A stretch of DNA of 64,000 nucleotides, from positions 13,748 to 77,747 of the forward strand of contig JAPPAV010000120.1 in the NCBI GenBank assembly GCA_026705345.1. Direction: 5' to 3'. The stretch comes from Gammaproteobacteria bacterium (GTDB taxonomy: Bacteria; Pseudomonadota; Gammaproteobacteria; Pseudomonadales; Azotimanducaceae). This document shows positions 12,700-45,392 of the stretch, piece after piece. Under the pieces are notes generated by a model, which saw nothing but the letters and a program-made list of their open reading frames with translations, searched no databases and was not told the DNA's origin. Position numbers and translations under genes: made by a program. Each line of letters opens with the position of its first letter. The first letter of the stretch is position 1.

Positions 12700-12734
12700 A
12701 CGCAGGGAAGTTACGCCAGACCGGCCACGGAATC

Positions 12735-13638: not shown

Positions 13639-13744
13639 GCAGGGATTATAGGCACGATGGTCGAGTCAGCCTCAATGGCACCCCTCCCCGTGCTGGTCTA
13701 TGATCTTGCGGACAAGCAACGAACAATGGGTGGGGGGAAACACC

Positions 13745-15394: not shown

Positions 15395-15420
15395 CGACGG
15401 CACCGGTGGCGGCGCGAACC

Positions 15421-15518
15421 GTAGGGGCGACCCTAACGCGCCCGTCAGGGCGCGCCGTCGCCCGGAAGACGAATGGGGTGTCGCTGGCGGCTCGGGCGGG
15501 GACAAGCCCCGCCCCTAC
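15421..15518. repeat. REP-type palindromic cluster
   Basis: The sequence is GTAGGGGCGACCCTAACGCGCCCGTCAGGGCGCGCC...GGGCGGGGACAAGCCCCGCCCCTAC. Confidence 0.75.
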
Positions 15519-18062: not shown

Positions 18063-18083
18063 CCGACTATCCGATCATGGCCC

Positions 18084-18470: not shown

Positions 18471-18482
18471 CGCAGAGGCCGG

Positions 18483-20138
18483 CTAGGTCGTCAACCAGCC
18501 GAACTGCTGCGGCTTTCGCCCCGCCCTCGGGTTGAGCGGCACGTTGATCAACGTGGGGCCGTTGTAGGCCATGGCCTCGTCCAGCGCCGCTCGGAGATCC
18601 TTCGGATCTTCCACGTAGAAGCCCTTGCCGCCCAATGCCTCGAGCATCCCCTCGTAACGAGCGCCGTAGGTGAGGTTGCCCGGAGGCAGTGTCTGGCCTT
18701 CCTTGAGCGGGTGCACACCGCCGCCGATGCCGCCGTTGTTGAGCACGATCATCTTCACCGGCAGGTTGTATCGGACCATGGTCTCGAGTTCCATGCCGGT
18801 GAACCCGAACGCCGAGTCGCCCTGCACGGACACGACCGGCTTGTCCGGGTTGGTGACCGCCGCGGCAACCGCGAAGCCCAAGCCCACGCCCATGGTGCCG
18901 TACGTTCCGGCATCCAGCCGATGCCGGGCGAGCCGGTTCGGCATCTGCGTACGGCCGATGTCCATGGTGTTGGCACCTTCGCCGATGATGATGGCGTCGT
19001 GGGGCAGCCAGTCGACGATGTCCTTGAAGGCCCGGTAGTAGTTCGTGGGCGCCGAGTCGTCGTCGATCATCGGCTGCACGGCTTCCATGTTGGCCTGGGC
19101 CTTCTCTTGAAGGACGGCGCGCCATGGCGTCTCCGAGGGATAGAACCACTGGCGGTTGTCGAGCGCCCGGTTCAACTGGCCGACCACCGCCTTGCCGTCA
19201 CCCACCAAGGCGACCTCGGCCGGTACGTTGGCGCCGATCTCTTCCGGCTCGATGTCGAGCTGGATGATGCGTACATCCTTATTGAAGCGCGGCGGCAGGC
19301 CGTAATGCATGATCCAGTTGAGGCGTGCGCCCATCAGGAAGACCAGGTCGGCTTCCCGCAATGCCGTACTTCGAGCGGCACCCACGGAAAGGGGATCGTC
19401 ATCGGGCATCGTCCCCTTGCCCATCGGCGAGTTCAGGAACGGCAACTGGGTACGCTCGATGAACTCGCGGATCTCGTCTTCCGCCCGCGACCAGGCCATG
19501 CCTTTGCCGACCACCACCAAGGGTCGTTCGGCGGATTCCAGCGCGGACAGCGCCGCTTCCACGGCATCGGGATCGGCCATCGTGCGCGGCGGTTCCGGCA
19601 CGGCTGCCGCCTCGATGATCTCGTCCTCGTCGCATTCGCCGCGGATGATGTCGTCCGGGAAGTCCAGGTACACCGGTCCGGGGCGGCCGTACAGCGAGTG
19701 GCGAACCGCCTGGTTGACGTAGTACGGAATGCGGTGCACGTGCTCGATGGCATGGGCGTACTTGCAATAGGGCGCCGCCAGTTCGACCTGGCGCTCTTCC
19801 TGGAAGCCGCCCATGCCGTTCTGGTAGACCGGCGACGCGCCGCCGATCAGGATCATCGGCCAGCAGTTCTGCTTGGCGTTGGCGAGACCCGCGAAGGCGT
19901 GGATTACGCCCGGGCCGGACACCGTCAGACACGCCTGCGGCCGGCCGGTCAGGTAGCCGGCCGCATGCGCGGCGTAGCTCGCCGCCTGCTCGTTGCGCAT
20001 GCCGACATAGGTGATGCCCGCCCGCTGCGCTTCCGCCGCGAAGCCCTGCACCGGAAAGCCGACGATGCCGAAGATGTAGTCGACCCCCTGTTGTTTGAGA
20101 CTGCGCGCCATCAACTGCGCGCCGTTGACTTCTGCCAT
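18483..20138 (-). CDS. ThDP-dependent enzyme, oxalyl-CoA decarboxylase / 2-hydroxyacyl-CoA lyase-like
   Basis: 551 aa. It has an N-terminal Pyr domain (GVDYIFGIVGFPV...MRNEQAASYAAHAAGYLTGRP) and a ThDP-binding motif (GDSAFGFTGMELETMVRYNLPVKMIVLNNGG). It resembles Oxc/HACL over its full length and appears to form an operon with the VOC and SSS genes. Confidence 0.8.
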   Translation of the reverse strand: MAEVNGAQLMARSLKQQGVDYIFGIVGFPVQGFAAEAQRAGITYVGMRNEQAASYAAHAAGYLTGRPQACLTVSGPGVIHAFAGLANAKQNCWPMILIGGASPVYQNGMGGFQEERQVELAAPYCKYAHAIEHVHRIPYYVNQAVRHSLYGRPGPVYLDFPDDIIRGECDEDEIIEAAAVPEPPRTMADPDAVEAALSALESAERPLVVVGKGMAWSRAEDEIREFIERTQLPFLNSPMGKGTMPDDDPLSVGAARSTALREADLVFLMGARLNWIMHYGLPPRFNKDVRIIQLDIEPEEIGANVPAEVALVGDGKAVVGQLNRALDNRQWFYPSETPWRAVLQEKAQANMEAVQPMIDDDSAPTNYYRAFKDIVDWLPHDAIIIGEGANTMDIGRTQMPNRLARHRLDAGTYGTMGVGLGFAVAAAVTNPDKPVVSVQGDSAFGFTGMELETMVRYNLPVKMIVLNNGGIGGGVHPLKEGQTLPPGNLTYGARYEGMLEALGGKGFYVEDPKDLRAALDEAMAYNGPTLINVPLNPRAGRKPQQFGWLTT

Positions 20139-31641: not shown

Positions 31642-32339
31642 GGCATGTAGGGCATCGGGCTCGGCCCCAACTGCGTCTCAAGCATGGGCTGAGCCATCTG
31701 CACGAACTCCGAGACCATCGGACGGCTTTCCCGCGGATCGATGATGTCCTCGATGTTGAACGCTTCCGCCGTGCGGAAGGGCGACGACAGCGCTTCGAGC
31801 TTCGCCTCGATTTCCGCCTGCTTGGCTTCGGGATCGTCGGATTCGGCGATCACCCGCCGATAGGCCGCCGAGACACCGCCCGGGGTCACCGGATTGGTGG
31901 GAATGTAGGTGCGCCCGATCTGCTCGAAGGTCTTGACGCTGCCGCCCGTGGCGTCGAGCAGTCGGATGAAAGGCAGCTTCCAATCCAACGCCATTTTCTG
32001 GGCATGGCCGCCCTTGTTGCCGATGCCGCCGTCCGACGCGCCGCCGCGCACCGTGAAGTCACCCGCCGTCAGCACCGCCTTGCGACCGTTCAGGTCGCCG
32101 AGGCCGATGATCATGTTGGAGGGGCGGACATGGACGAGCTTGTCGTTCTCGTAGGTGGCCGCCCCGGCGAGTTGGCCGATCTCCTGGAACGATCCTCCGT
32201 CGGTTATGAGATCAATACGCTCCCGAACGGTCAGCTTGCCGCGCCGTCGCTGCTCGGCAATGCCGGCCTCGCCGCCCATCTCCTCGGCGAACGCCCGCCG
32301 GCGTTTCATTTCCTCGATTTCCGGCTGCCAGACCATCAC
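31638..32339 (-). pseudogene. Acyl-CoA carboxylase carboxyltransferase (PccB/AccD5-like) remnant with in-frame internal deletion
   Basis: It is 233 aa against about 510+ aa for the family. The N-terminal ~155 aa (GKLTVRERIDLITDGGSFQEIG...DFTVRGGAS...LLDATGGS) runs straight into the family's C-terminal tail (SSPFRTAEAFNIEDIIDPRESRP). Confidence 0.55.
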
Positions 32340-32452
32340 TCGTCCTCCCCCAAGCCAAGACCGCGCACTTTAACGCATGGGAACAAGACCGCCGTCACCC
32401 CGCAGGTCATAAAACGGATGGAAACGGATGGACAAACGGATGCATTAGGCGC

Positions 32453-33541
32453 ATGCTCTATTGGATGGAAACGGATGACCAAATGGATGGGCGGTTTCGA
32501 CCATCCAAACCGCAGGTTGACAACGAGCTGCTCCGACTCGTCGCCCAGATCGACGAATTCAAAGGCGCTTGGCAGGCCATCGGACGTCTCGCGCCGGATC
32601 GGCTGGCCAGCCTTCGCCGCGTCGCCACGATAGAGAGCGTCGGCTCGTCCACCCGCATCGAAGGCGCAACGCTCGGCGATGGTGAAGTCGAGCGCTTGCT
32701 CGCCAACATCGAAATGCGGTCCTTCGCGACCCGGGACGAACAGGAGGTAGCGGGCTACGCCGACGCTATGCAGACGGTCTTCGCCCATTGGGAATCCATC
32801 GAGCCAACGGAAAACCACATCAAGCAAATCCATCTCGAACTGCTGCGCTACTCCACAAAGGACGAGCGCCATCGCGGCGAATACAAGACGCGCCCCAACC
32901 ATGTCGAAGCATTCGACCCGGACGGAAGGAGTCTAGGTATCGTGTTCGAGACGGCGACACCATTCGAAACCCCCATGCGGATGGCCGACCTCGTTGGCTG
33001 GACGCGCCGGAGACTCGACCGGCAGGACCTTCACCCCCTGCTGGCAATCGGGGTGTTCGTTGCCACGTTGCTCGCCATCCATCCCTTCCAGGACGGCAAC
33101 GGACGGCTGTCCCGGATCCTCACAACCCTGCTACTGCTCCGCAGCGGCTATGCATACGTGCCGTACAGTTCGCTGGAGAGCGCGATTGAACGGAACAAGG
33201 ACGGCTACTACCTCGCTCTCCGACAGACTCAACGCTCGCTTGGAACCGACACACCGGACTGGCAACCCTGGCTCTCGTACTTCCTGACGGCATTGCGACA
33301 GCAAAAGGACCTCCTAGGTCGGAAGATCGATCGCGAGCGGCTTCTCCTAGGCAATCTTCCCGACCTTTCCGTCCGGATCCTGGAGATCGCCCGAGAACGG
33401 GGCCGCGTCACCGTCGCCGATGCCGCCAAGGCCACCGCCACAAGCCGCAATACCGTCAAGGACCACGTCAGACGCCTAGTGACGGCGGGCCACCTCGCAA
33501 GGCACGGGGCCGGACGGGGAACGTGGTATGCGCCAGGCTGA
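32453..33541 (+). CDS. Fic family protein (AMPylase/adenylyltransferase-type), C-terminal winged-helix
   Basis: 362 aa. It has the canonical Fic motif HPFQDGNGRLSRILTTLLLL. The true start may be the ATG at 32483, because the first codons overlap a GGATG repeat array. Confidence 0.85.
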   Translation: MLYWMETDDQMDGRFRPSKPQVDNELLRLVAQIDEFKGAWQAIGRLAPDRLASLRRVATIESVGSSTRIEGATLGDGEVERLLANIEMRSFATRDEQEVAGYADAMQTVFAHWESIEPTENHIKQIHLELLRYSTKDERHRGEYKTRPNHVEAFDPDGRSLGIVFETATPFETPMRMADLVGWTRRRLDRQDLHPLLAIGVFVATLLAIHPFQDGNGRLSRILTTLLLLRSGYAYVPYSSLESAIERNKDGYYLALRQTQRSLGTDTPDWQPWLSYFLTALRQQKDLLGRKIDRERLLLGNLPDLSVRILEIARERGRVTVADAAKATATSRNTVKDHVRRLVTAGHLARHGAGRGTWYAPG

Positions 33542-33914
33542 TCGTCTTGCGATGTTGGACTCCACACCTGAGCGGGCAGCCTGGTTAGCCAGTCACCCGT
33601 TGGCGTACCAACAAATCCGCCGCGTATGTACCGTCTTCCCTCGCTTTCGCCCGGACGACGGACTCGCCGTCTACCGCCGAGCCTTTCCGTTGTGACCGCG
33701 CCACCGCCTGCTGCATCGCACGACTGAGAGCGCGCGTCGGCCGAGGCGGACCAGCCGACCACGTCGGCGTGGTTGCCACGAGGCGTCGAGTTCGTTCCGT
33801 ATGCGGTGCCGCTGTGCTGGGTCCATTCTGCCCCATCGTGCCTCCATCCCGCCGTCATTGGCGCGTTTGGGTGGACCTTTTATGGTACATTGCGGGTAAT
33901 GATCGAAGCCAAGC

Positions 33915-34247
33915 GTGTCCGCGGTGTTCTATCGCACCGAGGACGGTGCAGAACCAGTGCGTGCATGGCTGAAGTCCATGGCGAAGAAGGATCGCTTCAA
34001 GATCGGCGTAGACGTCAAGACCGTCGAGTTCGGTTGGCCGGTGGGTATGCCGCACTGTCGACCCTTGGGCAACGGGCTGCACGAAGTGCGCACCAATTTG
34101 GAGAACAGGACAGCCCGCGTTCTGTTCTTCATCGCTGACGCCCACATGGTGCTGGTCCATGGCTTCGACAAGAAAACACGCGCAACGCCGAGAGCGGACA
34201 TGGCCCTGGCATTGGACAGGAAACGCGAGTGGGAGACATCCACATGA
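33915..34247 (+). CDS. Type II toxin, RelE/ParE superfamily (HigB/Gp49-like)
   Basis: 110 aa. FYRTEDGAEPVRAWL...CRPLGNGLHEVRTNLENRTARVLFFI...MVLVHGFDKKTRATP is the phage Gp49/HigB-type pattern. The toxin-first order and ATGA overlap with an HTH gene support this. Confidence 0.75.
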   Translation: MSAVFYRTEDGAEPVRAWLKSMAKKDRFKIGVDVKTVEFGWPVGMPHCRPLGNGLHEVRTNLENRTARVLFFIADAHMVLVHGFDKKTRATPRADMALALDRKREWETST

Positions 34248-34549
34248 CCAACGGACGAAACCCCCACCTTGGCGGCACGCTCGACGAGTTGCTGGAGGAA
34301 GACGGAGCATTGGCCGATGCCCATGCGATCGCCGTCAAGCGTGTCTTGGCATGGCAGGTCGGCCAGACGATGACGGATCTGCGCATCACCAAGAGCGAGA
34401 TGGCCCGACGCATGGGGACCAGTCGCTCTGCGCTGGCCCGCCTGCTCGACCCGGAGAACCCGTCGGTGACCCTGCTGACGTTGGACAGGGCCGCGACCGT
34501 GCTCGGCAAGCGACTCACCGTCGACTTTGCCGATCGCAAGACCGCCTGA
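34244..34549 (+). CDS. XRE-family HTH antitoxin (HigA-like)
   Basis: It has the helix-turn-helix ITKSEMARRMGTSRSALARLLDPEN. Its start overlaps the toxin stop. Confidence 0.75.
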   Translation: MTNGRNPHLGGTLDELLEEDGALADAHAIAVKRVLAWQVGQTMTDLRITKSEMARRMGTSRSALARLLDPENPSVTLLTLDRAATVLGKRLTVDFADRKTA

Positions 34550-34555
34550 GCGGGT

Positions 34556-35251
34556 ATGCGTAGACCAAGCGGACGTTTTGCGCCCGGAGTAAGACCCGTG
34601 GGCTACGACCCGGCATTCCCGCGGACACACTACGATGGTGTGGCCGACAAGGAGTGGAACCGGCTGACACGCAACCGGCGGGGTGAGCTCAACTTTCTCG
34701 TGCACATGGACGTGTTGCGGCAGCACATCACGGCCGACATGGATGTGCTGGAGATCGGGGCCGGGGCCGGCATCTACACCAAAGAACTGGTGCACATGGC
34801 GCGGCGGCTCGTTGTATCGGACCTCTCCGAGGTGCAACTCGCCCTAAACCAAGACCATATGCGCGATCTCGGCGTTCTCGACCAGGTGGATGAATACCGG
34901 GTCTTGGATCTTGCGGACTTGAGTGCACTCGACGCGGCATCGTTCGGCGCTGTGGTCTGCGTGGGCGGTCCCTTGAGCTACCTGCTCGACAAGGAGTCCG
35001 CCGGTGTACGCCAAATCCTGCGGGTCTTGAAATCTGGCGGCATCGCGGTGGTCGGCGTCATGTCGCTGATCAATACCCTGGTGCTTTTCATGGGCATGCT
35101 ACCCGCGGAGAAGGAGGCCAATGGAATCGACAACCTGCGCTGGATGCTCGAAACCGGATTCCAGGACCGCGAACACAGCCATCAGACCGAACACTACTGC
35201 CACATGATGACGAGTGGCCGTTGCCACGGCCGCACCCTCCGTTCGTCGTGA
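34556..35251 (+). CDS. Class I SAM-dependent methyltransferase, 3' end apparently truncated or replaced
   Basis: It has motif I (VLEIGAGAGIYT), then LVVSDLS and VVCVGGPLSYL. The reading frame runs into an out-of-frame PhyH-like gene fragment at about 35190-35250. Confidence 0.6.
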   Translation: MRRPSGRFAPGVRPVGYDPAFPRTHYDGVADKEWNRLTRNRRGELNFLVHMDVLRQHITADMDVLEIGAGAGIYTKELVHMARRLVVSDLSEVQLALNQDHMRDLGVLDQVDEYRVLDLADLSALDAASFGAVVCVGGPLSYLLDKESAGVRQILRVLKSGGIAVVGVMSLINTLVLFMGMLPAEKEANGIDNLRWMLETGFQDREHSHQTEHYCHMMTSGRCHGRTLRSS

Positions 35252-35313
35252 ACGTCGTGATCGCCGTCGACGACTTCACCCAGGAGAACGGTGCCACGGT
35301 GTTGGTTCCCGGT
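35194..35313 (+). pseudogene. PhyH-family dioxygenase fragment (upstream piece, 5'-truncated and cut by the Mu-type insertion)
   Basis: The frame of track ORF 35221..35421 reads LLPHDDEWPLPRPHPPFVVNVVIAVDDFTQENGATVLVPG. This is the HxD...DDFTxENGAT...PG(SH) core of PhyH proteins, and it stops making sense at 35314. Confidence 0.7.
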
Positions 35314-35365
35314 ACGATGCCGACAAATATTTTGCAGCACGACAGACAACTACGTTGCAGCAAAT
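35314..35365 (+). repeat. Left terminal inverted repeat with two putative transposase-binding sites
   Basis: TTGCAGCA occurs at 35332-35339 and 35355-35362. The first site lies 18 nt from the terminus. Confidence 0.75.
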
Positions 35366-35429
35366 CAGGTGAGTCTTGGAGCGCAGTAACGGGCCATCTT
35401 GGCCCACAGAACGGGGTATAGTCTGCGCC

Positions 35430-35936
35430 ATGCCCGCACGGTCGAAAATCGGTCGGCTCCCGCAAAACGTCAGGGCGCGCCTCGATGCCCGGCTCATGGC
35501 GACCGGCTTCGGGCAACACCAGCAACACGCCGAATGGCTCGCCGAGCAGGGACACCCCGACATATCGCGCGCCGCCGTTCAGCGGCACTCGGCAGCGCTC
35601 GCGCGACGTGTCGAAAACATCGACGCGGCGACCCGCAAGGCGACGGCGTTCATCGACGCCACGAACGACGACCACGGCGCGCTGGCGGAGGCATCGCTGC
35701 GCCTCATCCAGGACAAGATACTCGAACTGATGATGGCGGGCGAAACGCTCAGCCCGCGCGACGCGTCGCTGGCCGCCAATGCCCTGGCCAAAGCGGCGCG
35801 GGCGTCGACCGCCATCCAGCGCGAACGCCGCAAGACCCTGCGCGAAGCGGCGCAGCGGGCCGTCGCCGCAGGCCGGGAGCACGGCATACCGCGCGACTTC
35901 GAGGGCGTCATGCGCCGCGCCATCGAAGGCGGCTGA
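35430..35936 (+). CDS. DUF3486 / phage Mu gp27-like protein (putative small terminase-like DNA-binding protein)
   Basis: MPARSKIGRLPQNVRARLDARL...HAEWLAEQGHPDISRAAVQRHSAAL matches the conserved N-terminus of DUF3486 (Mu gp27) proteins as I recall it. The start was chosen at ATG 35430. Confidence 0.65.
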   Translation: MPARSKIGRLPQNVRARLDARLMATGFGQHQQHAEWLAEQGHPDISRAAVQRHSAALARRVENIDAATRKATAFIDATNDDHGALAEASLRLIQDKILELMMAGETLSPRDASLAANALAKAARASTAIQRERRKTLREAAQRAVAAGREHGIPRDFEGVMRRAIEGG

Positions 35937-36115
35937 ACCGGACCTGAACGCGGGCCGCCGAAGGCCCTTGACACCCCGCGCGCGCGGGCGCAAAGTCGGG
36001 GTTATGAGATCGTTCATTACTCCCTCCAATCTCTTGCACCGGCCCGCCGTTCGGGAACACGAACGGTCTCATAACCCGTTTCCGTTCGGTCGGGTCGGTG
36101 CAGGAGTCCTAGACA

Positions 36116-36511
36116 ATGGAAAAAAACAACCCCTTCGCCCAACCGCGCGAACCCAATCAGTCGGGCCTCGCGGCCCGCGCCCACGAGACGCTGCGCTGCA
36201 TCTTCCCCGAAGACTTCGCGCCGACGCCGGGCAACATCTTCAACGCGGCGGGACGGACGCGAGCCGTCGCGCAACTGCTGTTCAACGCGATCCGGGGCGA
36301 GAGCTTCGTGCCAGCCGAGCAGGAGGAAGACAACGAAATCCTGCAAGGTATCGCGGACGGTCTTCGCGTGCTGGCGGGCATCGCGGAGGTGCAGGCGTCG
36401 GTGCTGTGGGAAGTCACGCTGAGCGGGGTTGACAACGATAGCGCCCGCGCGCTGCTGGCCGACACGCTAGCGCCCAAGGAAGCCGACCAGGACAAGGAAG
36501 CCGACCGATGA
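36116..36511 (+). CDS. Hypothetical protein (acidic, element-borne)
   Basis: 131 aa with coding-like composition. Its stop overlaps the transposase ATG (ATGA). I recognise no family. Confidence 0.5.
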   Translation: MEKNNPFAQPREPNQSGLAARAHETLRCIFPEDFAPTPGNIFNAAGRTRAVAQLLFNAIRGESFVPAEQEEDNEILQGIADGLRVLAGIAEVQASVLWEVTLSGVDNDSARALLADTLAPKEADQDKEADR

Positions 36512-38319
36512 GCCAGCCAGCAACGCAACTGATCCCGACCGCGCTGCCGCGAACGCCCGCGCCACGTCCCGCCGCCGCCGAAACGCTGGAGTTCAAACGC
36601 CACGTCGTGCAGCGGGTGATCGCCCTCATGCACGACGGCGCGACGTTCCGCGCGGCGGTCGTGGCGGTCGCAGACACCGAGGTCTGGCCAACTGGCGCGA
36701 AGCGCGGGAGACTGGTCAGCGAACGCAGCATCGCGGGATGGTACTCGCAGATGAAGCGCCGAGGCGCGACCGGCGTGGTACGCCAGCCGCGCGGCGACAT
36801 CGGGCGGCGGCGCGTCGCCATATCCCGCAAGTGGGACAAGCTCGCCGAGCGGTGCGGTATCGACGCCGAGGGCCGCGAGCGGATCGCCGCCGAAATGGTC
36901 GAGGCGATACGCGGCGCGTACCAGTCCGGCGTCGCCAGCGCCTCGCAGGTGCAATACGACGTGCGCCCCGACCTGCGCGACAAGACGAAGGCGGCGGCGA
37001 CGGTCCCGCCGGACGACGCCGAACTGTTGAAGGCGAGCCGGATACCGGAAGACTTCATCCGCCGCTACCAGATCGACAAGCTGCACGCGATCCACCGCGC
37101 CGACAAGGGGCGCTGGTCGAACGAGATCGTTGCGCGCGTCAAGCGCAGCCGCGAGGGCCTGCGCCGCATGGAGTGGGTCGCGGGCGACGTTCACCCGCTC
37201 GACGTGGTGCTGCGCCGCGACGACGGCTCGACGTTCCACCCGTCGCTGATCGCCTGGGAGGACCTGGCGACCAACGACCTGTTTCTGTCGGTGGCGACTC
37301 CCGAGAAGGGCCGCAACGTGGGGCGCGCCGACATAATCGAGTCGTTCGCGGAAATGTCCGCCGACAGCCAATGGGGCGTGCCGACGAACCTCTACCTGGA
37401 CAACGGCAAGGAGTACAACGGCCTGGAACTGGCCGACGACATGATGGCGCTGTCGAAGCTGGCGAACTCCGAACTCAACCTGTGGGAGGACCGCGAGGCG
37501 TTCGACTCGCGCCGCCACGGCGTGCTGCGTTCGACGGCGTACCAGCCGCAGGGCAAGATCATCGAGGGGTTCTTCTCCAACTTCGAGAGGTACCTGTCGC
37601 GGCTGCCGGGCTACACCGGCGGCGACCGCATGAACAAGCGGACGGACGTGCTCGGCCACAAGCCGACGCCGTACACCGCCGGGGTGGCGAAGTTCAAGGA
37701 AGACGTGGAGAGCGCGCTAATGGAATACCGGCAGGTGAAGCAGCGCGGCCACCTGGACGGCAGGAGTCCCCACGAGGCGACACAGGAGCAGATCGACAAG
37801 GGCTGGCGGAGCGTGGTGCTCGATCCCTCGCACCTCAACATCGTGTTCGCCGACGTGCACCGGCGGCAGGTGCAGAGCGACGGCATCCACTACGGCAAGC
37901 GCATCTACTACAGCGACGCGCTCAAGCAGCGGACGCTGCCGGGCCAGTGGGTGCAGGTGCGCGTCCCGATCATGGGCGACGGCGAACTGCTGTACGTGAT
38001 GGACGGCGACGGCAACCCCGTCTGCACCGTCTCGGAGGCTCCCGTCTACGCGCAGGACGACCTGCGCGGGCCGAACGAGATCAAGCGCCGCAAGCGCGCG
38101 CAACTCGCGCACCTGGCGGCAACGCGGGTCGACTTCGACGCCGACGCGGGCGCGCGGATGCGCCGCGCGGCGAGCGTCGATCCGGTGCCGCAGGCGCAGG
38201 TCGGCGCGTATCTGTCGGTCGACCCCGGATGGGCGAAGCTCGCGGACGAGGGGCGGGAACTGCTGGAAGGGCCGCGCGCCCCGGCGCGCGCGCCGAAGAC
38301 GACGGAGGGCGGAGCATGA
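36508..38319 (+). CDS. DDE transposase, Mu (MuA)/retroviral integrase superfamily
   Basis: 603 aa. The candidate catalytic triad is D227 (EWVAGDVHPLD), D298 (LYLDNGKEY) and E353 (PQGKIIEGFF). The spacing of 71/55 is close to the MuA D-D-E spacing as I recall it. It also has an N-terminal HTH-like region. Confidence 0.8.
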   Translation: MSQPATQLIPTALPRTPAPRPAAAETLEFKRHVVQRVIALMHDGATFRAAVVAVADTEVWPTGAKRGRLVSERSIAGWYSQMKRRGATGVVRQPRGDIGRRRVAISRKWDKLAERCGIDAEGRERIAAEMVEAIRGAYQSGVASASQVQYDVRPDLRDKTKAAATVPPDDAELLKASRIPEDFIRRYQIDKLHAIHRADKGRWSNEIVARVKRSREGLRRMEWVAGDVHPLDVVLRRDDGSTFHPSLIAWEDLATNDLFLSVATPEKGRNVGRADIIESFAEMSADSQWGVPTNLYLDNGKEYNGLELADDMMALSKLANSELNLWEDREAFDSRRHGVLRSTAYQPQGKIIEGFFSNFERYLSRLPGYTGGDRMNKRTDVLGHKPTPYTAGVAKFKEDVESALMEYRQVKQRGHLDGRSPHEATQEQIDKGWRSVVLDPSHLNIVFADVHRRQVQSDGIHYGKRIYYSDALKQRTLPGQWVQVRVPIMGDGELLYVMDGDGNPVCTVSEAPVYAQDDLRGPNEIKRRKRAQLAHLAATRVDFDADAGARMRRAASVDPVPQAQVGAYLSVDPGWAKLADEGRELLEGPRAPARAPKTTEGGA

Positions 38320-38774
38320 ACCGTCCGCGTTACATCTTCGACGACTCCCCCGGCTGGCTCCAATTCCACAAGGACGCCCTGGTGGATCGGTATTGGCGGA
38401 TGCTGCACGGCAAGCGCCCGTATTGGTCCTCCATCGGACGGGTGACGGACGAAGACCGCGCCGCGTTCCACGAGTGGCTGCAACAGGCGGTAGGCGTGGA
38501 TCACGTCAATTTCCTCACCCTCGAAACGGTGATCACGGCGCGCGATCTGCTGCTACAAGCCGAGGACGCCGGGGTTTGCGACGAGGGGCCGAGCCACCCG
38601 CTGACCTTCGGCGAACTGGAACGCGCCGTAGGGCTGACGGTCGACGACTGGCAGCGGCTGGCGGAGCGCGTCGCCACCACCTGGCCCGGCGGGTTTCCCT
38701 GCCCGCCGGACGACGACGGAGAGTACAATACGGCGGTGCCGGACCTCTCGATATGGGAGCCTGACGAATGCTGA
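38316..38774 (+). CDS. Hypothetical protein (occupies the MuB position but has no ATPase motifs)
   Basis: 152 codons forming the 3' end of track ORF 36738..38774. Its ATG overlaps the transposase stop (ATGA). I see no Walker motifs. Confidence 0.5.
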   Translation: MNRPRYIFDDSPGWLQFHKDALVDRYWRMLHGKRPYWSSIGRVTDEDRAAFHEWLQQAVGVDHVNFLTLETVITARDLLLQAEDAGVCDEGPSHPLTFGELERAVGLTVDDWQRLAERVATTWPGGFPCPPDDDGEYNTAVPDLSIWEPDEC

Positions 38775-39238
38775 CGCTAACCGAACTGGTCGACGGCTAC
38801 ATGGAACGCAAGTACGAGCCGCTGCACCTGATTTTCTACGACGTGTTCGTGGAGGCGCAGCGCGTCCGCGCGGCCAACCCCGACGACACGAACGCGGCGC
38901 TGATCGAGGCGCACGTCGAACTGGCGAGCCTCGCGGCGACGCTGGTCGCGGGCGAGATCGAGAGCGGTTTGAAAGACGACGCGGGCACCATGCGCGAACA
39001 GGTCTTCAACGCAGCGCTGGTGGCGATGGCCGCCTGGCACTCGCTCCAGGGCGCGGACCTGGGCGAGCATCAGAACCGCCTCGCGCGGGTGGCGCTGGTC
39101 GAGACGATAAACGTCGTGATGCAGCACGTCGAAAGGCCGCAAATCGCGAAGCACCATCGGGAGATTTGGGGCGACGTGCCGCGCAGGCGGAGCCGCGCGC
39201 TGCTCGCCCGCATGGAGCGGCTGGCCGAAAATGCCTGA
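38768..39238 (+). CDS. Hypothetical protein
   Basis: 156 aa, predicted helical. It overlaps both neighbours by 7-8 nt, which suggests translational coupling. Confidence 0.5.
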   Translation: MLTLTELVDGYMERKYEPLHLIFYDVFVEAQRVRAANPDDTNAALIEAHVELASLAATLVAGEIESGLKDDAGTMREQVFNAALVAMAAWHSLQGADLGEHQNRLARVALVETINVVMQHVERPQIAKHHREIWGDVPRRRSRALLARMERLAENA

Positions 39239-39695
39239 CGCCGACGCATTCGACCCCGCCGCCGATCCGGCCTGGCGGGCCGTCATGGCGGCCAAGGCCG
39301 CCGTCGAAGACGCCAGCGGCGGCGGCGATTCCGTGTCGCGGCTGGCCGCCGCCGAGGTCAAGATGGCCGCGTTCGTGGTCCAGGGATTCATCACCGAAAC
39401 CCTGCGCGGCGCGACGGTCGAGGAAACGCTGACGGTGCGCAACGCGGCGATCCTCACGGCGCAGATGGCGGTGGCGCGGCTCGCGGGCGATCCGCGCGCC
39501 GATTCCGCCGACGCGCAGGCCGCGCGGGCCGAAACGCTCGAACAGGTGCTCAACGTCGGCGAGGCGTGCCTTGCGCGCGCGGCGGCGGCGGAGCGGCGCG
39601 CGGCGGTGATGCAGGAGACGGTCAGACTGCTCCGAGAGACGCTCGAGGCGATCCAGGCCGCCGACGCCAACGGGCGCGGCCCGGAGGTCCACTAA
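39231..39695 (+). CDS. Hypothetical protein (Ala-rich, helical)
   Basis: 154 aa in an operon position directly upstream of the capsid gene. I recognise no family. Confidence 0.45.
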   Translation: MPDADAFDPAADPAWRAVMAAKAAVEDASGGGDSVSRLAAAEVKMAAFVVQGFITETLRGATVEETLTVRNAAILTAQMAVARLAGDPRADSADAQAARAETLEQVLNVGEACLARAAAAERRAAVMQETVRLLRETLEAIQAADANGRGPEVH

Positions 39696-39734
39696 CCAAA
39701 GCTCATCCATCCACAGGGACGAAAGGAGTCCGAT

Positions 39735-40673
39735 ATGGAAGTCACCCACGGCAATCTGCAAACCCTCGAACGCACGTACTCGACGGCGTTCCGCGAGGGC
39801 TACGACCAGGCGCCCCGCGACCACGAGTCGTTCGCCATGACGATCCCGAGCGGGTCGCTGACTCAGGAGTACGCTTGGCTCGGCCAGTTCCCGTCGCTCA
39901 ACGAGTGGTCGGGCGAGCGCATCATCCGGGGGATCAACCAGCAGGGGTTCGCGATCCGCAACCGCCTGTTCGAGTCGACCGTCGGCGTCCAGCGCACGAC
40001 CATCGAGGACGACCAGTACGGCGTGTACGGCCCGCTCATGCGGGAGATGGGGCGCGCCGCGTCCGACCACCAGGCGCAGATGGTCTACGGCCTGTTGGCT
40101 CAAGGGTTCACGCGGAAGGGGTACGACGGGCAGTACTTCTTCGACACCGACCATCCCGTCAGCAGCAGCGCGGGCGGCACGACGAAGCTCTACTCGAACG
40201 ACGGCGGCGGCAACAACGCCGAGGCGTGGTTCCTGGTCGACGCCTCGCGGATGGTCAAGCCGATCATCTTCCAGGAGCGGCTGCGGCCCGAGTTCACGAT
40301 GCTCAACCAGGCCGACGACGAGCACGTCTTCATGCGCGACGAGTACCTGTACGGCATCCGCGAGCGGAGCAACGTCGGGTTCGGATTCTGGCAGACCGCC
40401 TACGGTTCGAAAGACGAGCTAAACGACACGAACTACAAGACCGCGCGCGAAGCCATGCGGGGCGTCAAGGGCGACGAGGGCCGCCCTCTCGGCATCACGC
40501 CGACGCACCTGATCGTGCCGCCGACGATGGAGGAGAAGGGCCGGGAACTGCTGGTTTCGGAGCGGTCGGCGGACGGCTCCACCAACGTCTGGTTCGACAC
40601 GGCGACGCTTGTCGTGACGCCCTGGCTCTCGGCGGGAACCACGCTCGACGAGGGCGGCGGACTGGAATCGTGA
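39735..40673 (+). CDS. Mu-like major head subunit (gpT family)
   Basis: 312 aa. YAWLGQFPSLNEWSGERI...FESTVGVQRTTIEDDQYGVYGPLMREMGRAA...GYDGQYFFDTDHPV...NVGFGFWQ follows the conserved gpT pattern. Confidence 0.8.
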   Translation: MEVTHGNLQTLERTYSTAFREGYDQAPRDHESFAMTIPSGSLTQEYAWLGQFPSLNEWSGERIIRGINQQGFAIRNRLFESTVGVQRTTIEDDQYGVYGPLMREMGRAASDHQAQMVYGLLAQGFTRKGYDGQYFFDTDHPVSSSAGGTTKLYSNDGGGNNAEAWFLVDASRMVKPIIFQERLRPEFTMLNQADDEHVFMRDEYLYGIRERSNVGFGFWQTAYGSKDELNDTNYKTAREAMRGVKGDEGRPLGITPTHLIVPPTMEEKGRELLVSERSADGSTNVWFDTATLVVTPWLSAGTTLDEGGGLES

Positions 40674-41686
40674 CGCAGGCCGCAATCGCGCTCGGGCGCG
40701 CGTCGGAGCTACCGGCGGAGCCGCCCGAGTGGGTGGACCTGCTGCCGTCCGGCGCGGTCCTGGCGCGCGACGGGCGGCGCTGGACGGTCGCGGATCCCGA
40801 GGCGGTCGCCGCCGCGAGCCGCGAGCGGGCGGGCGCGACGGATCCCGCCATCGACTACGAGCACCAGTCGCACCGCACGGCGGGGGAGGCTCCCGCCGCC
40901 GGATGGATCAAGGAGATACGCGCCGAGGGCGGCGCGATCCGGGCGCGCGTCGAGTGGACCGCGCACGCGGCGGCGCGCATCCGCGCGCGCGAGTACCGCT
41001 ACCTGTCGCCGACGTTCCTGTTCGACGCCGAGACGGGCCGCGTCCGGGCCGTGACCGGCGCGGCGCTCACCAACACCCCTGCCCTGGACCTGCCCGCGCT
41101 GGCGCGGGCGCGAGACGGAGAACCCGAGATGAACGAGGCGCTAAAGGCCCTGCTGGCCGTGTTCGGCCTGGACGACAACGCGGCGGCGGATGCCGTCGAA
41201 AGCGCGGCGGCGGAGGCGCGCCCGGCGCTCGCCGCGTACCGCAAGCTCAAGGAGCGGGCCGACGCCGAAGGCACGACGGTCGACGAACTGGCGACCGCCG
41301 CCGCCCGGACCATTCCCGATCCGGCGCAGTACGTGCCGCGCGCGCAACTCGACACGGCGCTGGCGCGGGTGGTCGAACTGGAATCCACGACGACGGACGA
41401 GGCGCTCGCCGCCGCCGTCGGCGGCGCGATCCGCGACGGCAAGCTCCCGCCGTCGCAGCGGAAGTGGGCCACGGCCTACGCGCGGGAGAACCTCGACGGC
41501 TTCCGGGCGTTCGTCGCGGGCGCGCCGGTGCTGATCCGCCCCGGACGCGACGGGCGCGGCGCGCCGGGCGACGGCGGGAGGCCGTCGACGCACGGCCTGA
41601 CCGAAGCCGAACTGGCCGTCTGCCGCGCCGTGGGCGTGTCTCCCGAGAAGTATGCTGGCCTTCCGGGCCGTGGCGAAGCGGCCTAG
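40670..41686 (+). CDS. Mu-like prophage protein I (gpI head protease/scaffold family)
   Basis: Its GTG overlaps the gpT stop (GTGA). PEWVDLLPSGAVLARDGRRW...IDYEHQS...AAGWIKEIRAEGGAIRARVEWT...YRYLSPTF is the gpI signature. The Ala-rich coiled C-terminal half fits a scaffold. Confidence 0.75.
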   Translation: MTQAAIALGRASELPAEPPEWVDLLPSGAVLARDGRRWTVADPEAVAAASRERAGATDPAIDYEHQSHRTAGEAPAAGWIKEIRAEGGAIRARVEWTAHAAARIRAREYRYLSPTFLFDAETGRVRAVTGAALTNTPALDLPALARARDGEPEMNEALKALLAVFGLDDNAAADAVESAAAEARPALAAYRKLKERADAEGTTVDELATAAARTIPDPAQYVPRAQLDTALARVVELESTTTDEALAAAVGGAIRDGKLPPSQRKWATAYARENLDGFRAFVAGAPVLIRPGRDGRGAPGDGGRPSTHGLTEAELAVCRAVGVSPEKYAGLPGRGEAA

Positions 41687-41909
41687 CCGCCGCTACAGCG
41701 CCGCCGAGCGCGCGATGGTGCGGGCCGCGTTCGCGGAGGCCGCCCGGCTGCTCGGCGCGCCGCTGGACGACGACCAACTGGACGCGGCGGCGCGGATCGC
41801 GACCACCCCCGGAATCGACCGCGACACCGCCGCGCGCCGCCTGAACCGGGAGGCCCGCCCCCTGTTCGACGCCGTGAAGCGGATGCTCGCCAGGACGGGG
41901 GAGGCGTGA
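41652..41909 (+). CDS. Hypothetical small protein
   Basis: 85 aa from the ORF track. It overlaps the gpI 3' end by 35 nt, and an alternative start lies at 41715. Support is weak. Confidence 0.3.
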   Translation: MLAFRAVAKRPSRRYSAAERAMVRAAFAEAARLLGAPLDDDQLDAAARIATTPGIDRDTAARRLNREARPLFDAVKRMLARTGEA

Positions 41910-41910
41910 C

Positions 41911-44265
41911 GTGCCGCTAGGCCGGGGCGACCTCGAACTGGCGCTGCGGGTGCGCGCCGACCTGCGCCAGGCCGTCGGGGAACTGAACCGCCTGACGGCG
42001 GCGGTCGGCAAAACGGACGCGAACACGCGGCGCGGCGCGAAGGCGAACCGCGAACTGTCGCGCACCGTCCAGCGCGTGGCGCGCGACGCGCAACAGGCCG
42101 CCCGCTCGCTGGACCGCTTGGACCGCGAGCAGCGGCAGACCGCCGCCGGTGCCGAGCGCATGGAGCGCGCCGCGAGGGGCGCGGGATCGGCCTGGCGGCG
42201 GTTCCGCACCTTGGTCGCGGCGGGCGGCCTCGGCCTGCTGCTCCGCGAGGTGGTGCAGGCCGGGATCGAGTTCGAGGCGTTCGAGCAGAAGCTCCGCTTC
42301 GCGACGGGATCGGCGGCGGGCGCGACGGCGGAACTGGCGTTCCTGCGCGCCGAGGCCAACCGCCTCGGGATCGACTTCAACGTGCTCGCCGAGAGCTATT
42401 CGAACTTCGCCGCCGCGACGCGGGACACGCCGCTGGAACAACAGACGCGGGAGATATTCACGGCGTTCGCCGAGGGCGCGCGCGTGCTCCGCCTGACTCG
42501 CGAGCAGACGCGCGGCCTGTTCCTGGCGCTCGAGCAGATCGTGTCCAAGGGCGTGGTCAGCGCCGAGGAACTGCGCCAGCAGCTGGGCGAGCGGCTGCCG
42601 GGCGCGCTCCAGATCGCGGCGCGGGCGCTCGGCGTGACGACCGAGGAACTGAACCGGATGCTGGCCAGCGGCGAACTGCTGTCGACGGAGTTCCTGCCGC
42701 TGTTCGCGGCGGAGGCCCGGCGCACGTTCGGCGCGGACGTTCCCGAGGCCGCGAACAAGGCCGACGCGTCCATCGCGCGTTTAGGCAACGCGTTCCGCGA
42801 CCTCAAGGTCAGGATCGCCGAATCGGGCGTGCTGGACTTGACTGCGGCCTTGGCGGAGGCGGCCGCGGCGGGCATCCACGCGGCCAACGAGGCCGATCGG
42901 ACGCTAGGCCAGCGGCTCCAGGAGCGCGTGAGGATGGACCGACTGCGCGAACTGCTGGCCGAGCAGGCGGACCTGCGCGACCAGATCAACGCCGCGCTGG
43001 ACCGCGACGAGGCGCTGTACGCGCAGTACCTGCGCCAGCGGCTGGAGGGACTCGCGGACGATGTGCGCGACGCGGCCCGCGCGGTCCGGGCGGTGTCGGG
43101 CGCGCCGCCGCCGCTCGGGGAGATTCCGCCGGTTCCCGTCGGCGGCAGACGCCCCCGGCCCGAGCCGCCGCATCCCGAGCCAGCGCCGGTCGACCCGGAG
43201 TTTCTCGCGCGGCTGGAGAAGGAGAACCGCGCGATCCTCGGCATCTACGACCGCCGCCGCGCGAGCGCCGCCGAAACGCGCGACACGCTGCTCGGCTACC
43301 TGTCGGAGCAGACGGAGGGCTACGCGGAACACGTCGCCGCCGTGCAGACGTGGTACGACACGGTGCTCAAGGGCATCGCGGAGGACGAGGCCGCAGACGC
43401 CGAACGGCGCGCCGAGGCGAAGGCGGCGGCGCGCCAGCGCGAGATCGAGGCCGACGAACGGGCCGCCGCGAGCGCGGAGGACGCCGCACGGCGCGCGAGG
43501 GAGGCGGCGGCGCGCGAGGCCGAGCTAGCGTACCGCTCGGCGCGGGACGCCCTAACGGGCGCGCACAGGGCGCTAGGCGACATCGCCGAGCTTGCGACGG
43601 ACGCCGGGGCGGAGGCCGAGAGCGCCATCGTGAACGCGTTCCACGGCATTGAGGACGCGTTCGAGCGGCTGCGGCGGACGGGCAAGGCGAGCTTCGGCGA
43701 CCTGGTCGACTCCGTGTTGGCGGACGTGACGCGGCTGCTGCTGCGGCTCCAGGTGACCGGCCCGTTGGCGCTGTTCCTGCAATCGCTGCTAGGCGGCGCG
43801 GGGCAGGTCGGGCTGCCGCTCGGCGACGGCTCCCGGTTCGCCGGGTTCGCCCACGGCGGCGGGATCGCTGGATCGCTCCGCACCGGGCGGCGGCTGGACG
43901 CCGCCGCGTTCGCCTTCGCGCCGCGACTGCACAGGGGAGGCTCAGCGTCCGTATTCCGGCCAGCAGTCGCTCGTGGGATTCCGGGCCTGCGCGACGACGA
44001 GATTCCGACCATCCTGGAGCGCGGCGAGGGCGTGTTCACGCGCGAGCAGATGGCGGCGCTCGGCGGCCTCGCGGGCGGGCCGCGCGAGGTGGTGGTTCAG
44101 ATACGCAACGAGAGCAGCCAAGAGATCGAGGCGAGCGACGCGACGGCGGAGTTCGACGGGATGCGGCGGATGGTCGTCGGCGTCGTGTTGAACGACCTGC
44201 AACACGGCGGGGACATATCCCGCGCCCTGCACGGTGGGTTCGGCCTGCGGCGGAGGCCGATTTGA
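41911..44265 (+). CDS. Phage tail tape measure protein
   Basis: 784 aa with a GTG start. The conserved tape-measure core is TREQTRGLFLALEQIVSKGVVSAEELRQQLGERLPGALQIAARALGVTTEELNRMLASGELLSTEFLPLFA. Long coiled-coil Ala/Arg/Glu-rich segments follow. Confidence 0.8.
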   Translation: MPLGRGDLELALRVRADLRQAVGELNRLTAAVGKTDANTRRGAKANRELSRTVQRVARDAQQAARSLDRLDREQRQTAAGAERMERAARGAGSAWRRFRTLVAAGGLGLLLREVVQAGIEFEAFEQKLRFATGSAAGATAELAFLRAEANRLGIDFNVLAESYSNFAAATRDTPLEQQTREIFTAFAEGARVLRLTREQTRGLFLALEQIVSKGVVSAEELRQQLGERLPGALQIAARALGVTTEELNRMLASGELLSTEFLPLFAAEARRTFGADVPEAANKADASIARLGNAFRDLKVRIAESGVLDLTAALAEAAAAGIHAANEADRTLGQRLQERVRMDRLRELLAEQADLRDQINAALDRDEALYAQYLRQRLEGLADDVRDAARAVRAVSGAPPPLGEIPPVPVGGRRPRPEPPHPEPAPVDPEFLARLEKENRAILGIYDRRRASAAETRDTLLGYLSEQTEGYAEHVAAVQTWYDTVLKGIAEDEAADAERRAEAKAAARQREIEADERAAASAEDAARRAREAAAREAELAYRSARDALTGAHRALGDIAELATDAGAEAESAIVNAFHGIEDAFERLRRTGKASFGDLVDSVLADVTRLLLRLQVTGPLALFLQSLLGGAGQVGLPLGDGSRFAGFAHGGGIAGSLRTGRRLDAAAFAFAPRLHRGGSASVFRPAVARGIPGLRDDEIPTILERGEGVFTREQMAALGGLAGGPREVVVQIRNESSQEIEASDATAEFDGMRRMVVGVVLNDLQHGGDISRALHGGFGLRRRPI

Positions 44266-44885
44266 CACCTCGTTTCGAGGACCTTCAGGCCGTGGCATGG
44301 AGCAACTTGCTGTCGGGCGTCCGCGACGCGATATATGCGCAGGTCGACTTCAGTCGGCTCGCGCCACACGCCACCGAACCGTACTCGACGGTCGCGCTAA
44401 CGGGGGAGGATTGGCTGTGGCTCCAGAGTCATTTGCGTCGGGCCGTAACGTTCCACGCGGACCTTTGGGGAATTCGGCTCAGAGACGAAGGGGGGTTGGA
44501 CCCGCTCGAACCGCTGCTGTTCATCCGCAGCGGCGCGGCGTCCCTACGCCCTTGGCGCAGTGACAACCCGCCGGACGCGGGCGACCCAATCGTCAGGTCG
44601 CGCGCATTGACGACGATTGCGGTTTTGCAGGACGACCCCGATTGCGTCTTGGAGGCGTTGACGCTTGGGGATGGAGACTCTCGCGGTGTCGACCTGCTGC
44701 GCAACCGGCGGTTCGCCCCGGGCGACGACGCCAACAACCCCACCGGGCCATGGTTTCGTTATTCCGGCGTTGATGGCGCGACGTTCCGGGCGGAGTACCA
44801 ACGAACAACTCCGTTGGCAGCGAGTGCGGGCAGGACCGTGGACAGCATTGTCTCCTATGCCCACCATTACTACCCGCGTCCCTAG
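44262..44885 (+). CDS. Hypothetical protein (last gene of the element)
   Basis: 207 aa. Its TTG start overlaps the tape-measure stop (TTGA). I recognise no family. Confidence 0.45.
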   Translation: MTPRFEDLQAVAWSNLLSGVRDAIYAQVDFSRLAPHATEPYSTVALTGEDWLWLQSHLRRAVTFHADLWGIRLRDEGGLDPLEPLLFIRSGAASLRPWRSDNPPDAGDPIVRSRALTTIAVLQDDPDCVLEALTLGDGDSRGVDLLRNRRFAPGDDANNPTGPWFRYSGVDGATFRAEYQRTTPLAASAGRTVDSIVSYAHHYYPRP

Positions 44886-44952
44886 GTCGTTTGTTCCTCT
44901 ACCACCTGCTCCCGCGAAATCCCGTTTGATCCCGGAAAATCCCGGCTTTCGC

Positions 44953-45003
44953 CGTTGCTGCAAACTAATTATCGGTTGCTGCAAAACAATTTTCCGCCTC
45001 GTA
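44953..45003 (-). repeat. Right terminal inverted repeat with two putative transposase-binding sites
   Basis: TGCTGCAA (the reverse complement of TTGCAGCA) occurs at 44956-44963 and 44977-44984. The last site lies 19 nt from the terminus, mirroring the left end. Confidence 0.75.
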
Positions 45004-45392
45004 CCGGTTCGCACAAGTGGCATGACCAGGAGGTGCGTCAGCCTCCCGATGTCGGGACCGTCCAGATGGAGATGGGTGTCGGCTCGCTGTTGGCTTGGAC
45101 CGGCGCCATGTGGCACGGCGGGGGCGCCAACAAGACCAAGGATCAGAGCCGGCTCGCCGTCGACATCAACTTCAACCTCTCGTACCTCCGCCAGCAGGAG
45201 AACCAGTACATCGGTGTCCCGCGGGAGGAAGTCGCGAAAATGCCCGAGCGACTACAGCGCGTGCTCGGCTATCAGCAGGGCATGTCGATCGCCGGACCCG
45301 GCATGGTGGATCTGCGCGACCCGCTGAAGATGATGGACCGGGTGCATTTCGGGTACGACGTCAACGGCCCCGACATGCCCGCTATCGGCTAG
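45004..45392 (+). pseudogene. PhyH-family dioxygenase fragment (downstream piece of the gene split by the element)
   Basis: GSHKWHDQEV...GSLLAWTGAMWHGGGANKTKDQSRLAVDINFNLSYLRQQEN is the PGSHKW plus distal-His (WHGGG) C-terminal half of PhyH proteins. It is in frame with the 35194-35313 piece once the insertion and one TSD copy are removed. Confidence 0.8.

Follow-up and report, generated by a model that had tools for sequence, protein, structure and literature searches.

A compact Mu-type transposable element with its own capsid genes as a candidate phage satellite

We analysed a 64,000-nucleotide stretch of contig JAPPAV010000120.1 (hereafter the window), a 78-kb contig that belongs to a metagenome-assembled genome (MAG) of a gammaproteobacterium of the Azotimanducaceae with locus tags OXH68_* and proteins MCY36233xx, and found a Mu-type transposable element of 9,690 bp (35314-45003) inside a PhyH-family gene. 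The element carries a MuA-like transposase, a gpT-type major head protein, a gpI-type protease/scaffold, a gp27-type small-terminase-like protein and a tape measure protein, and no gene that we could recognise for a portal, a large terminase or lysis. Our preferred reading, of moderate confidence, is that this intact, compact and non-autonomous element is a satellite that depends on a full-size Mu-like siphovirus. More tentatively, we propose that this element and its relatives of 8-10 kb constitute an undescribed and widespread class of satellites that would move by Mu-type transposition and build their own capsid, often with a protease and tape measure protein of their own and, in the present element, a small terminase as well, while the portal, packaging motor, tail and lysis functions would come from a helper phage.

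Ends, insertion site and gene content

The element entered the PhyH gene by DDE transposition, in a precise, Mu-like insertion that left a short, 5-bp target duplication. Its flanks are the two halves of a PhyH-family dioxygenase gene. When 35314-45003 and one CCGGT copy are deleted, the joined flanks read through as ...LVPGSHKW... and give a single uninterrupted Pfam PhyH match (1e-20, compared with 2e-6 for the right half alone); the empty-site sequence at the insertion point is GTTCCCGGTTCGCAC. An alternative 4-bp duplication (CCGG) with symmetric TA termini may also describe the event, because CCGGTACG is partly palindromic. The terminal inverted repeats are imperfect, with arms at 35309-35339 and 44977-45007 that are 84% complementary. 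The motif TTGCAGCA has five matches in the window, where 1.08 are expected, and four of them lie within the element ends, two per end (Table 1). The G+C content is 70-76% across most of the element and ~64% in the flanks, which suggests that the element was acquired from elsewhere. The initial annotation had already described such an element at 35430-44885; the element itself stands, the span has been extended to both ends, and the protease gene and the gene after the transposase had to be re-set. Inside the right-end sites lies an array of three AATCCCG-like repeats. This motif is not enriched across the window (12 matches versus 10.8 expected), so that the array is a local architecture of the right end, and a packaging or accessory protein may bind to it.

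Since the high G+C of the window (65-75%) fills the mechanical list of open reading frames (ORFs) with shadow ORFs, genes were set with a codon-position GC plot and inspection of start codons. The resulting 11 plus-strand genes, g1-g11, give the element a coding density of 96%. All of them, every orphan ORF included, follow the GC1>GC2<GC3 pattern that genuine genes on the plus strand show when a genome is rich in G+C, and the NCBI gene calls for the MAG agree with them, with g11 being 197 aa long at NCBI versus 207 aa here. The GC3 frame plot rejected an Arg/Gly-rich ORF at 40729-41844 as the protease gene in favour of g8, and likewise corrected the gene after the transposase to g4. The impression that 36116-44885 forms one operon was borne out, since its genes are joined by overlaps (ATGA, ATGA, ATGCTGA, ATGCCTGA, GTGA, TTGA and one of 35 nt) or by a 1-nt gap, with the exception of 39 nt between g6 and g7. 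The only other larger intergenic gap, 179 nt, separates g1 from g2. It holds a structured spacer with a minimum free energy of -60.6 kcal/mol (z = -5.6 versus shuffled sequence), a 16-nt inverted repeat (GGTTATGAGATCGTTC / GAACGGTCTCATAACC) and a long hairpin that ends 10 nt before the g2 start. This spacer is a possible regulatory leader, operator or operon control point. An Rfam scan gave no match in the element, the spacer included, and a scan for sigma-70 promoters and terminators gave nothing above chance.

The transposase appears catalytically intact. In an alignment of g3 with 31 homologues (32 sequences), the residues D227, D298 and E353 are invariant and have a MuA-like spacing, so that the catalytic triad withstood the careful alignment called for by the initial annotation. 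A profile search of g3 against the PDB reached TnsB (8aa5, 7svw) and MuA (4fcy, 1bcm), and a single-sequence phmmer search of the same database returned no match. Compared with its ~700-aa relatives, g3 is without an N-terminal domain of ~80 aa, in a position analogous to domain I-alpha of MuA, which binds the enhancer/operator. By this analogy, the loss would fit the absence of a repressor and an operator region. The idea that g2 supplies the missing N-terminal domain through a frameshift was rejected on sequence grounds. Judged from sequence comparisons, g3 belongs to a poorly sampled transposase clade: the nearest relative is 47% identical and lies on a 2.8-kb contig, a scan of a genome collection without the window's own genome found only four loci at 33-37% identity, and tblastn against cultured Mu-like phages gave no match except one of 26% identity to Faecalibacterium phage Mushu.

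Pfam and PHROGs also bore out the other content recognised at first sight, namely the gp27/DUF3486 protein, gpT, gpI, the 784-aa tape measure protein and six ORFs of no known family. The capsid protein g7 keeps 67-68 of the 70-71 near-invariant capsid residues. Its nearest relative is 54% identical, and it groups with the full-size siphoviral Mu-like loci L009 and L012, apart from the capsids of the compact elements described below. The protease/scaffold g8 agrees with 62 relatives at 18 of 18 near-invariant aligned columns, H65 and S113 among them, and has a gap in one further column; across 271 aa, g10 shares 40% identity with the tape measure protein of L012, a 34-kb Mu-like siphovirus contig. 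The order of these genes departs from that of Mu, as had been noted. In each of the 75 IMG/VR Mu-like loci with both genes, the protease/scaffold gene lies upstream of the capsid gene, while the element has the reverse, with the capsid gene (T) running into the protease gene (I) through a GTGA overlap; in addition, the gp27-type g1 sits at the left end, upstream of the transposase gene (A). Neither the gp27-A nor the T-I order is reachable by deletions alone, which argues against simple decay. Discordant nearest neighbours of T and I, sought as a sign of mosaic origin, gave no clear signal. From its family, g1 probably sets packaging specificity. Two relatives, L090 (408-4463, minus strand, next to A-B-GemA) and L008 (8259-9897), also have a gp27-like gene left of the transposase, encoded on the other strand. 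At L090, a 167-aa ORF comes after this gene, then a gpI protease gene and a pentapeptide-repeat gene; neither a terminase nor a portal gene intervenes, and the layout is a further compact one of non-canonical form.

The functions first listed as missing are indeed missing. A Walker A motif is absent from all six frames of the element, which excludes MuB, a large terminase and any P-loop ATPase. Neither Pfam nor PHROGs gave a match in the element for a repressor/Ner, MuB, GemA/Mor, large terminase, portal, gp30/F, connector, further tail or lysis gene, nor for a tyrosine integrase or the replication/regulation module of phage-inducible chromosomal islands (PICIs). Elsewhere in the window, tblastn of phage ORFs, which replaced a tblastx comparison with Mu-like loci that was swamped by high-GC compositional matches, detected no other Mu-like structural gene, and a large terminase, portal, gp30/F, tail or lysis gene was likewise absent there. 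The element therefore combines an intact mobility module with an incomplete set of virion and packaging genes, as expected of a satellite.

The six orphan ORFs (g2, g4, g5, g6, g9 and g11) had no match in Pfam, none in PHROGs even at E<=10, none in PADLOC (where g1 was also without a match), and none by tblastn against 50,697 phage genomes (E<=0.01) or 80 Mu-like viral loci. Among 5.8 billion proteins g4 matched only itself, as did g11 among 1.84 billion cluster representatives, and a scan of viral contigs with g5 and g11 found no relatives. The initial annotation had said that fragments of portal, terminase or tail genes among them would indicate plain decay; on these searches, none of the six can be recognised as such a fragment. 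A comparison of g5 with g6 rejected the idea that they are paralogues. AlphaFold2 predictions made without an alignment had a pLDDT of 37 for g11 and 45 for g4 and gave no usable fold.

At the insertion site, the PhyH gene is also cut on its 5' side: profile positions 111-211 remain, with a start near 35190. Upstream of this remnant and in a different frame are an ORF for a methyltransferase (34556-35251), a small helix-turn-helix (HTH) antitoxin-like ORF ending at 34546 and a Fic/DOC-winged HTH gene (32453-33541). Within 32000-35313, these genes sit in a block of lower GC, which suggests a second, separate rearrangement or island at the insertion site.

Copies and diverged compact relatives

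The same transposase clade contains many elements of 8-10 kb with the plan repressor-A-B-GemA-(I)-T-(tape measure), in some with Mor after GemA, and without a portal or terminase gene. We recovered L091, L097, L100, L003, L016, L177, L199, L205, L211, L213, L226 and L234 as such compact elements; the family is recurrent and apparently undescribed. Relatives of the window element, whose absence had been named as a reason to doubt a satellite, thus exist as deeply diverged compact elements, with no close copies among them. Inverted GGGAATTATCCTGCACTG sites with TG...CA termini enclose the L091 element, which lies between host genes, and L100, L003 and the 9.15-kb IMG/VR contig L016 share the design of L091 and L097. 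A tape measure gene is present in at least four compact elements. In L226, the order of T, I, a small ORF and the tape measure gene is the same as in the window element, and in L199 and L205 the T gene is directly followed by that of a 675- or 732-aa PhageMin_Tail protein. L205 has inverted AGsTATTTGGCGG sites ~9.2 kb apart at its bounds. Overall, inverted-repeat ends are demonstrable in three compact relatives; those of L097, L016 and L226 were sought and could not be defined. An AATCCC(G)-like array of three repeats with ~10-nt phasing, inside the right-end transposase sites, is common to the window element, L205, L226 and L091 (Table 1). Two of the compact elements, L091 and L097, are in cultured strains.

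The divergence within this group is deep. Among L091, L097, L100, L003 and L016, identities are 37-74% for the transposases and 39-64% for the capsid proteins; across the wider compact set including L199, L205 and L226 they are 30-74% and again 39-64%, and the window transposase is 30-38% identical to those of its compact relatives. The capsids of 13 compact elements keep 58-68 of the 70 residues that are near-invariant in 69 full-phage capsids, at ~40-60% identity, and we therefore conclude that the capsid gene has remained under selection. The reduced architecture, being conserved across such diverged elements (L091, L097, L100, L003, L016, L199, L205, L226 and others), is a trait of the lineage.

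A metagenome scan with the transposase alignment gave 80 loci, 15 of which have I and/or T 4-7 kb downstream of the transposase gene. At about five of the 80 (L180, L194, L207, L208 and L216), a large terminase gene lies 7-12 kb downstream; these may be full-size phages and possible helpers. Among ~155 capsid-centred IMG/VR loci, 112 carry a large terminase or portal gene, and L016 is the only compact one.

The window element resembles the compact elements in its transposase clade, its gpT capsid, the size of 8-10 kb, the lack of portal, terminase, tail and lysis genes, and the tape measure gene placed after the head genes (as in L226, L199 and L205). In contrast to them, it has no repressor, MuB or GemA/Mor (either lost or never acquired), carries gp27 at its left end together with six orphan ORFs, and has a tape measure protein of the TMP_3 type instead of the PhageMin_Tail type. 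It is thus either a divergent member of the compact group or a parallel construction.

Copies of the window element itself were found on three other assembled contigs (one from Logan, two from ENA), all 100% identical within 34907-43969. L005, the only recovered copy that reaches a flank, has the same left junction as the window and stops at 43969. The two independent ENA assemblies, L006 and L007, both stop at 38355, just after the transposase gene; the shared stop could point to a variant, or to another element with the same g2-g3 segment, in those samples.

Some members of the transposase clade differ widely in their cargo. L099, on the Phaeobacter inhibens plasmid pDOK1-1-1, has only a myovirus tail module after an unannotated transposase remnant. 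L098, on the Mesorhizobium plasmid pWSM1497, has an SbcCD-like nuclease/ATPase pair as cargo, and L101 has reverse transcriptase and PRTase genes beside repressor-A-B-GemA. At L217 (9674-21431), L236 (9656-21295) and L223, A and B are followed ~9 kb downstream by a large tape-measure-like ORF, which is 892-1087 aa long in L217 and L236 and is identified in L223 by a tape measure tblastn match only. No gpT-type capsid gene was detected between A-B and this ORF at the three loci, which may be compact elements with another type of capsid.

Table 1 Features of the window element and of its mapped compact relatives
Feature	Sequence	Position	Strand	Evidence or remarks
Left target-duplication copy, CCGGT	window	35309-35313		direct repeat of 45004-45008; joined flanks regain PhyH frame
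Left end, terminal inverted repeat	window	35314-35429	+	two TTGCAGCA sites, 35332-35339 and 35355-35362, spaced 23 nt
g1, Mu gp27/DUF3486, small-terminase-like, 168 aa	window	35430-35936	+	PF11985 (Phage_Mu_Gp27) 1e-27; phrog_426 'terminase small subunit' 3e-24
g1-g2 spacer, structured	window	35985-36115	+	16-nt inverted repeat; long hairpin just before g2 start
g2, orphan ORF, 131 aa	window	36116-36511	+	ATGA-coupled to transposase gene; GC1>GC2<GC3; no Pfam, PHROG or PADLOC match
g3, MuA/TnsB-family DDE transposase, 603 aa	window	36508-38319	+	Mu-transpos_C 7e-7; phrog_310 transposase 3e-36
g4, orphan ORF at usual MuB position, 152 aa	window	38316-38774	+	no P-loop; matches only itself
g5, helical orphan ORF, 156 aa	window	38768-39238	+	no Pfam, PHROG, PADLOC or phage-genome match
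g6, Ala-rich helical orphan ORF, 154 aa	window	39231-39695	+	no Pfam, PHROG, PADLOC or phage-genome match
g7, Mu gpT-type major head protein, full length, 312 aa	window	39735-40673	+	PF10124 (Mu-like_gpT) 3e-116
g8, Mu gpI-type protease/scaffold, full length, 338 aa	window	40670-41686	+	PF10123 (Mu-like_Pro) 8e-70, profile positions 1-329/330
g9, orphan ORF, 85 aa	window	41652-41909	+	overlaps g8 3' end, directly upstream of tape measure gene; no Pfam or PHROG match
g10, tail tape measure protein, 784 aa	window	41911-44265	+	TMP_3 1e-27; Tape_meas_lam_C 2e-16
g11, orphan ORF, 207 aa	window	44262-44885	+	matches only itself
Right end	window	44886-45003	+	array AATCCCG / GATCCCG / AATCCCG at 44918-44944 (~10-nt phasing), then two inverted TTGCAGCA sites, 44956-44963 and 44977-44984
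Right target-duplication copy, CCGGT	window	45004-45008		matches 35309-35313
Compact element L091, 8.2 kb	L091 (Roseomonas genomospecies 6 ATCC 49961, QOKW01000002)	~9083-17262 (~87.4-95.5 kb of QOKW01000002)		repressor-A-B-x-GemA-x-I-T-x-x
Compact element L097	L097 (Acetobacter aceti NBRC 14818 plasmid pAACEN2)	~10799-19451		regulator-A-ATPase-x-GemA-x-x-protease-gpT-connector-x-x; flanked by plasmid genes
Compact element L226	1.28-Mb contig			repressor-A-B-x-GemA-x-T-I-135 aa-tape measure (PhageMin_Tail 1e-23), then host methyltransferase
AATCCC(G)-like array	L205	17895-17920		
AATCCC(G)-like array	L226	~19130-19165		
AATCCC(G)-like array	L091	~17180-17205		

The satellite reading and its alternatives

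Independent random decay would hardly produce the same reduced design repeatedly in deeply diverged elements whose ends are intact and whose capsid residues are conserved, and we regard random decay of a prophage as an unlikely origin of the element. The argument that the initial annotation made against simple decay has thus held, on the grounds of gene order, 96% coding density, retained near-invariant residues and the recurrent design. A capsid that is under selection in an element unable to package DNA alone implies a helper phage that supplies the portal, motor, tail and lysis functions. The proposal of a satellite, first made in the initial annotation, is consistent with the anatomy of the element, with its intact ends and catalytic triad, and with the compact relatives, while the helper that it calls for was not seen in the 64-kb window.

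By analogy with the biology of Staphylococcus aureus pathogenicity islands (SaPIs) and capsid-forming PICIs (cfPICIs), we infer that a life cycle as a satellite would run as follows. Since the element encodes no repressor, its operon would be switched on when a helper Mu-like phage infects or is induced, possibly via the structured g1-g2 leader or an activator of the helper. The transposase would then copy the element, either with helper MuB acting in trans or without MuB, and the gp27-type protein would steer the helper large terminase to the element's own end. Shells would be built from the capsid and protease/scaffold of the element around the helper portal, and these may be small and fit for a headful of ~10 kb. 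Helper tails would finish the particle, and helper lysis would release it. The tape measure protein of the element might either set the length of the tail or enter the next cell with the DNA. It is striking that the structural genes retained are those that set the dimensions of a virion, with the capsid and scaffold governing head size and the tape measure governing tail length.

Several observations weigh against a satellite. No helper was found in the window, where the only Mu-like structural genes are those of the element. We know of no satellite that has a tape measure gene and no other tail genes, and a capsid module without a portal would have to co-assemble with a foreign portal, which is plausible. 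Every protein of the element is a singleton 90% cluster among ~15 billion sequences. Given identical copies and one known insertion site, there is no direct sign of recent movement. The orphan ORFs yield no functional information, the structure predictions for g11 and g4 being unusable. In addition, the window element may be an independent construction, because it has no repressor, MuB or GemA and its capsid groups outside the compact elements.

The element might instead descend from a reduced Mu-like lineage that is now a plain transposon, in which the capsid, protease, gp27 and tape measure genes are leftover cargo with no role in a particle. We consider this unlikely. Many relatives of the transposase do come from Mu-like regions with clear signs of decay or truncation (L092, L094, L099 and L101), and the singleton status, the one known insertion site and the lack of a helper in the window would all fit such a history. 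However, the gp27-A and T-I orders are beyond deletions alone, the genes are tightly coupled at high coding density, and essentially all near-invariant residues are kept in the capsid and protease, as they are in the capsids of the 13 other compact elements; moreover, the module of T, (I) and tape measure recurs in L226, L199 and L205. An anti-phage interference cassette carried on a transposon, whose decoy proteins (capsid, protease, small-terminase-like and tape measure) would poison the assembly of incoming Mu-like phages and shield the host, with no gain in transfer for the element, seems improbable to us. The encoded parts are limited to components of the head and tail pathways that co-assemble with many partners, clade members L098 and L101 adjoin defence-like genes, and defences that block assembly have been described (PMC10884400). 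Against it stand the empty PADLOC search with the orphan ORFs and g1, and the conservation of a full-length, catalytically intact capsid and protease, which a decoy would not strongly need. In known satellites, moreover, interference and transfer do not exclude each other.

A device that works without a helper, either a portal-less HK97-type shell or a particle resembling a gene transfer agent, serving the host or the element, is very improbable. From general knowledge of the HK97 fold, a capsid and protease/scaffold can in principle form portal-less shells, but the element has no packaging ATPase, portal or lysis function, its tape measure protein would have no role when there is no tail, and it is a mobile and recently acquired segment with a G+C of 0.70-0.76 compared with ~0.64 in the flanks. 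That the element is an assembly artefact or a chimeric contig is scarcely credible. The sequence does come from a MAG, and two ENA assemblies both end inside the element at 38355; yet three other contigs are identical to it over the range given above, left junction included, and inverted ends, a target duplication and the in-frame restoration of PhyH would be unexpected in a chimera.

Comparison with known systems and implications

With Mu and the Mu-like phages (D3112/B3-type siphoviruses), the element shares the MuA/TnsB-type transposase, repeated end sites and the 5-bp duplication, as well as the gp27, gpT and gpI families and a siphovirus-type tape measure protein. It is one quarter of their size, and of their gene set the repressor/Ner, MuB, GemA/Mor, lysis, large terminase, portal, gp30 and tail genes are absent; its transposase is missing the N-terminal domain found in related transposases, and the positions of gp27 (left of the transposase) and T (ahead of I) are different. 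The laboratory mini-Mu constructs, to our knowledge, are man-made and without capsid genes.

Among satellites, the cfPICIs are similar to the element in their small size and in having their own HK97-type capsid, protease/scaffold and small terminase, and both are without a large terminase and tails. However, cfPICIs use a tyrosine integrase and have their own replication module, and they encode a portal and head-tail connectors, whereas the element has a Mu-type transposase and a tape measure gene and no portal or connectors. SaPIs and the Gram-negative PICI PmCI172 redirect packaging with their own small terminase and have capsids sized to a small genome, as is proposed here for the element. 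Unlike the element, they integrate site-specifically, remodel helper capsid proteins with no capsid protein of their own, and do not transpose. As far as we know, the well-studied satellites (P4, PICI/SaPI, cfPICI and the PICI-like elements, PLE) all integrate by site-specific recombinases. The initial annotation was not aware of a described capsid-encoding satellite that moves by Mu-type transposition, and we likewise found none in the open-access literature, nor any description of the present compact elements. PmCI172, which forms small capsids, was reported in a P. multocida strain with a Mu-like myovirus as a resident prophage (PMC6893505), and it may serve as a partial precedent for a satellite tied to a Mu-like prophage.

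Because compact elements are carried by cultured strains (Roseomonas genomospecies 6 ATCC 49961, and Acetobacter aceti NBRC 14818 on a plasmid), a bench test of the satellite proposal is possible now. If it is true, the capsid, scaffold/protease, small terminase and tape measure would make up a natural minimal system for the control of head size and tail length. Such satellites would insert almost anywhere, mutating host genes as seen here with the PhyH gene, and headful packaging might mobilise flanking host DNA. Replicative Mu-type transposition would then be a novel means by which satellites multiply and spread.

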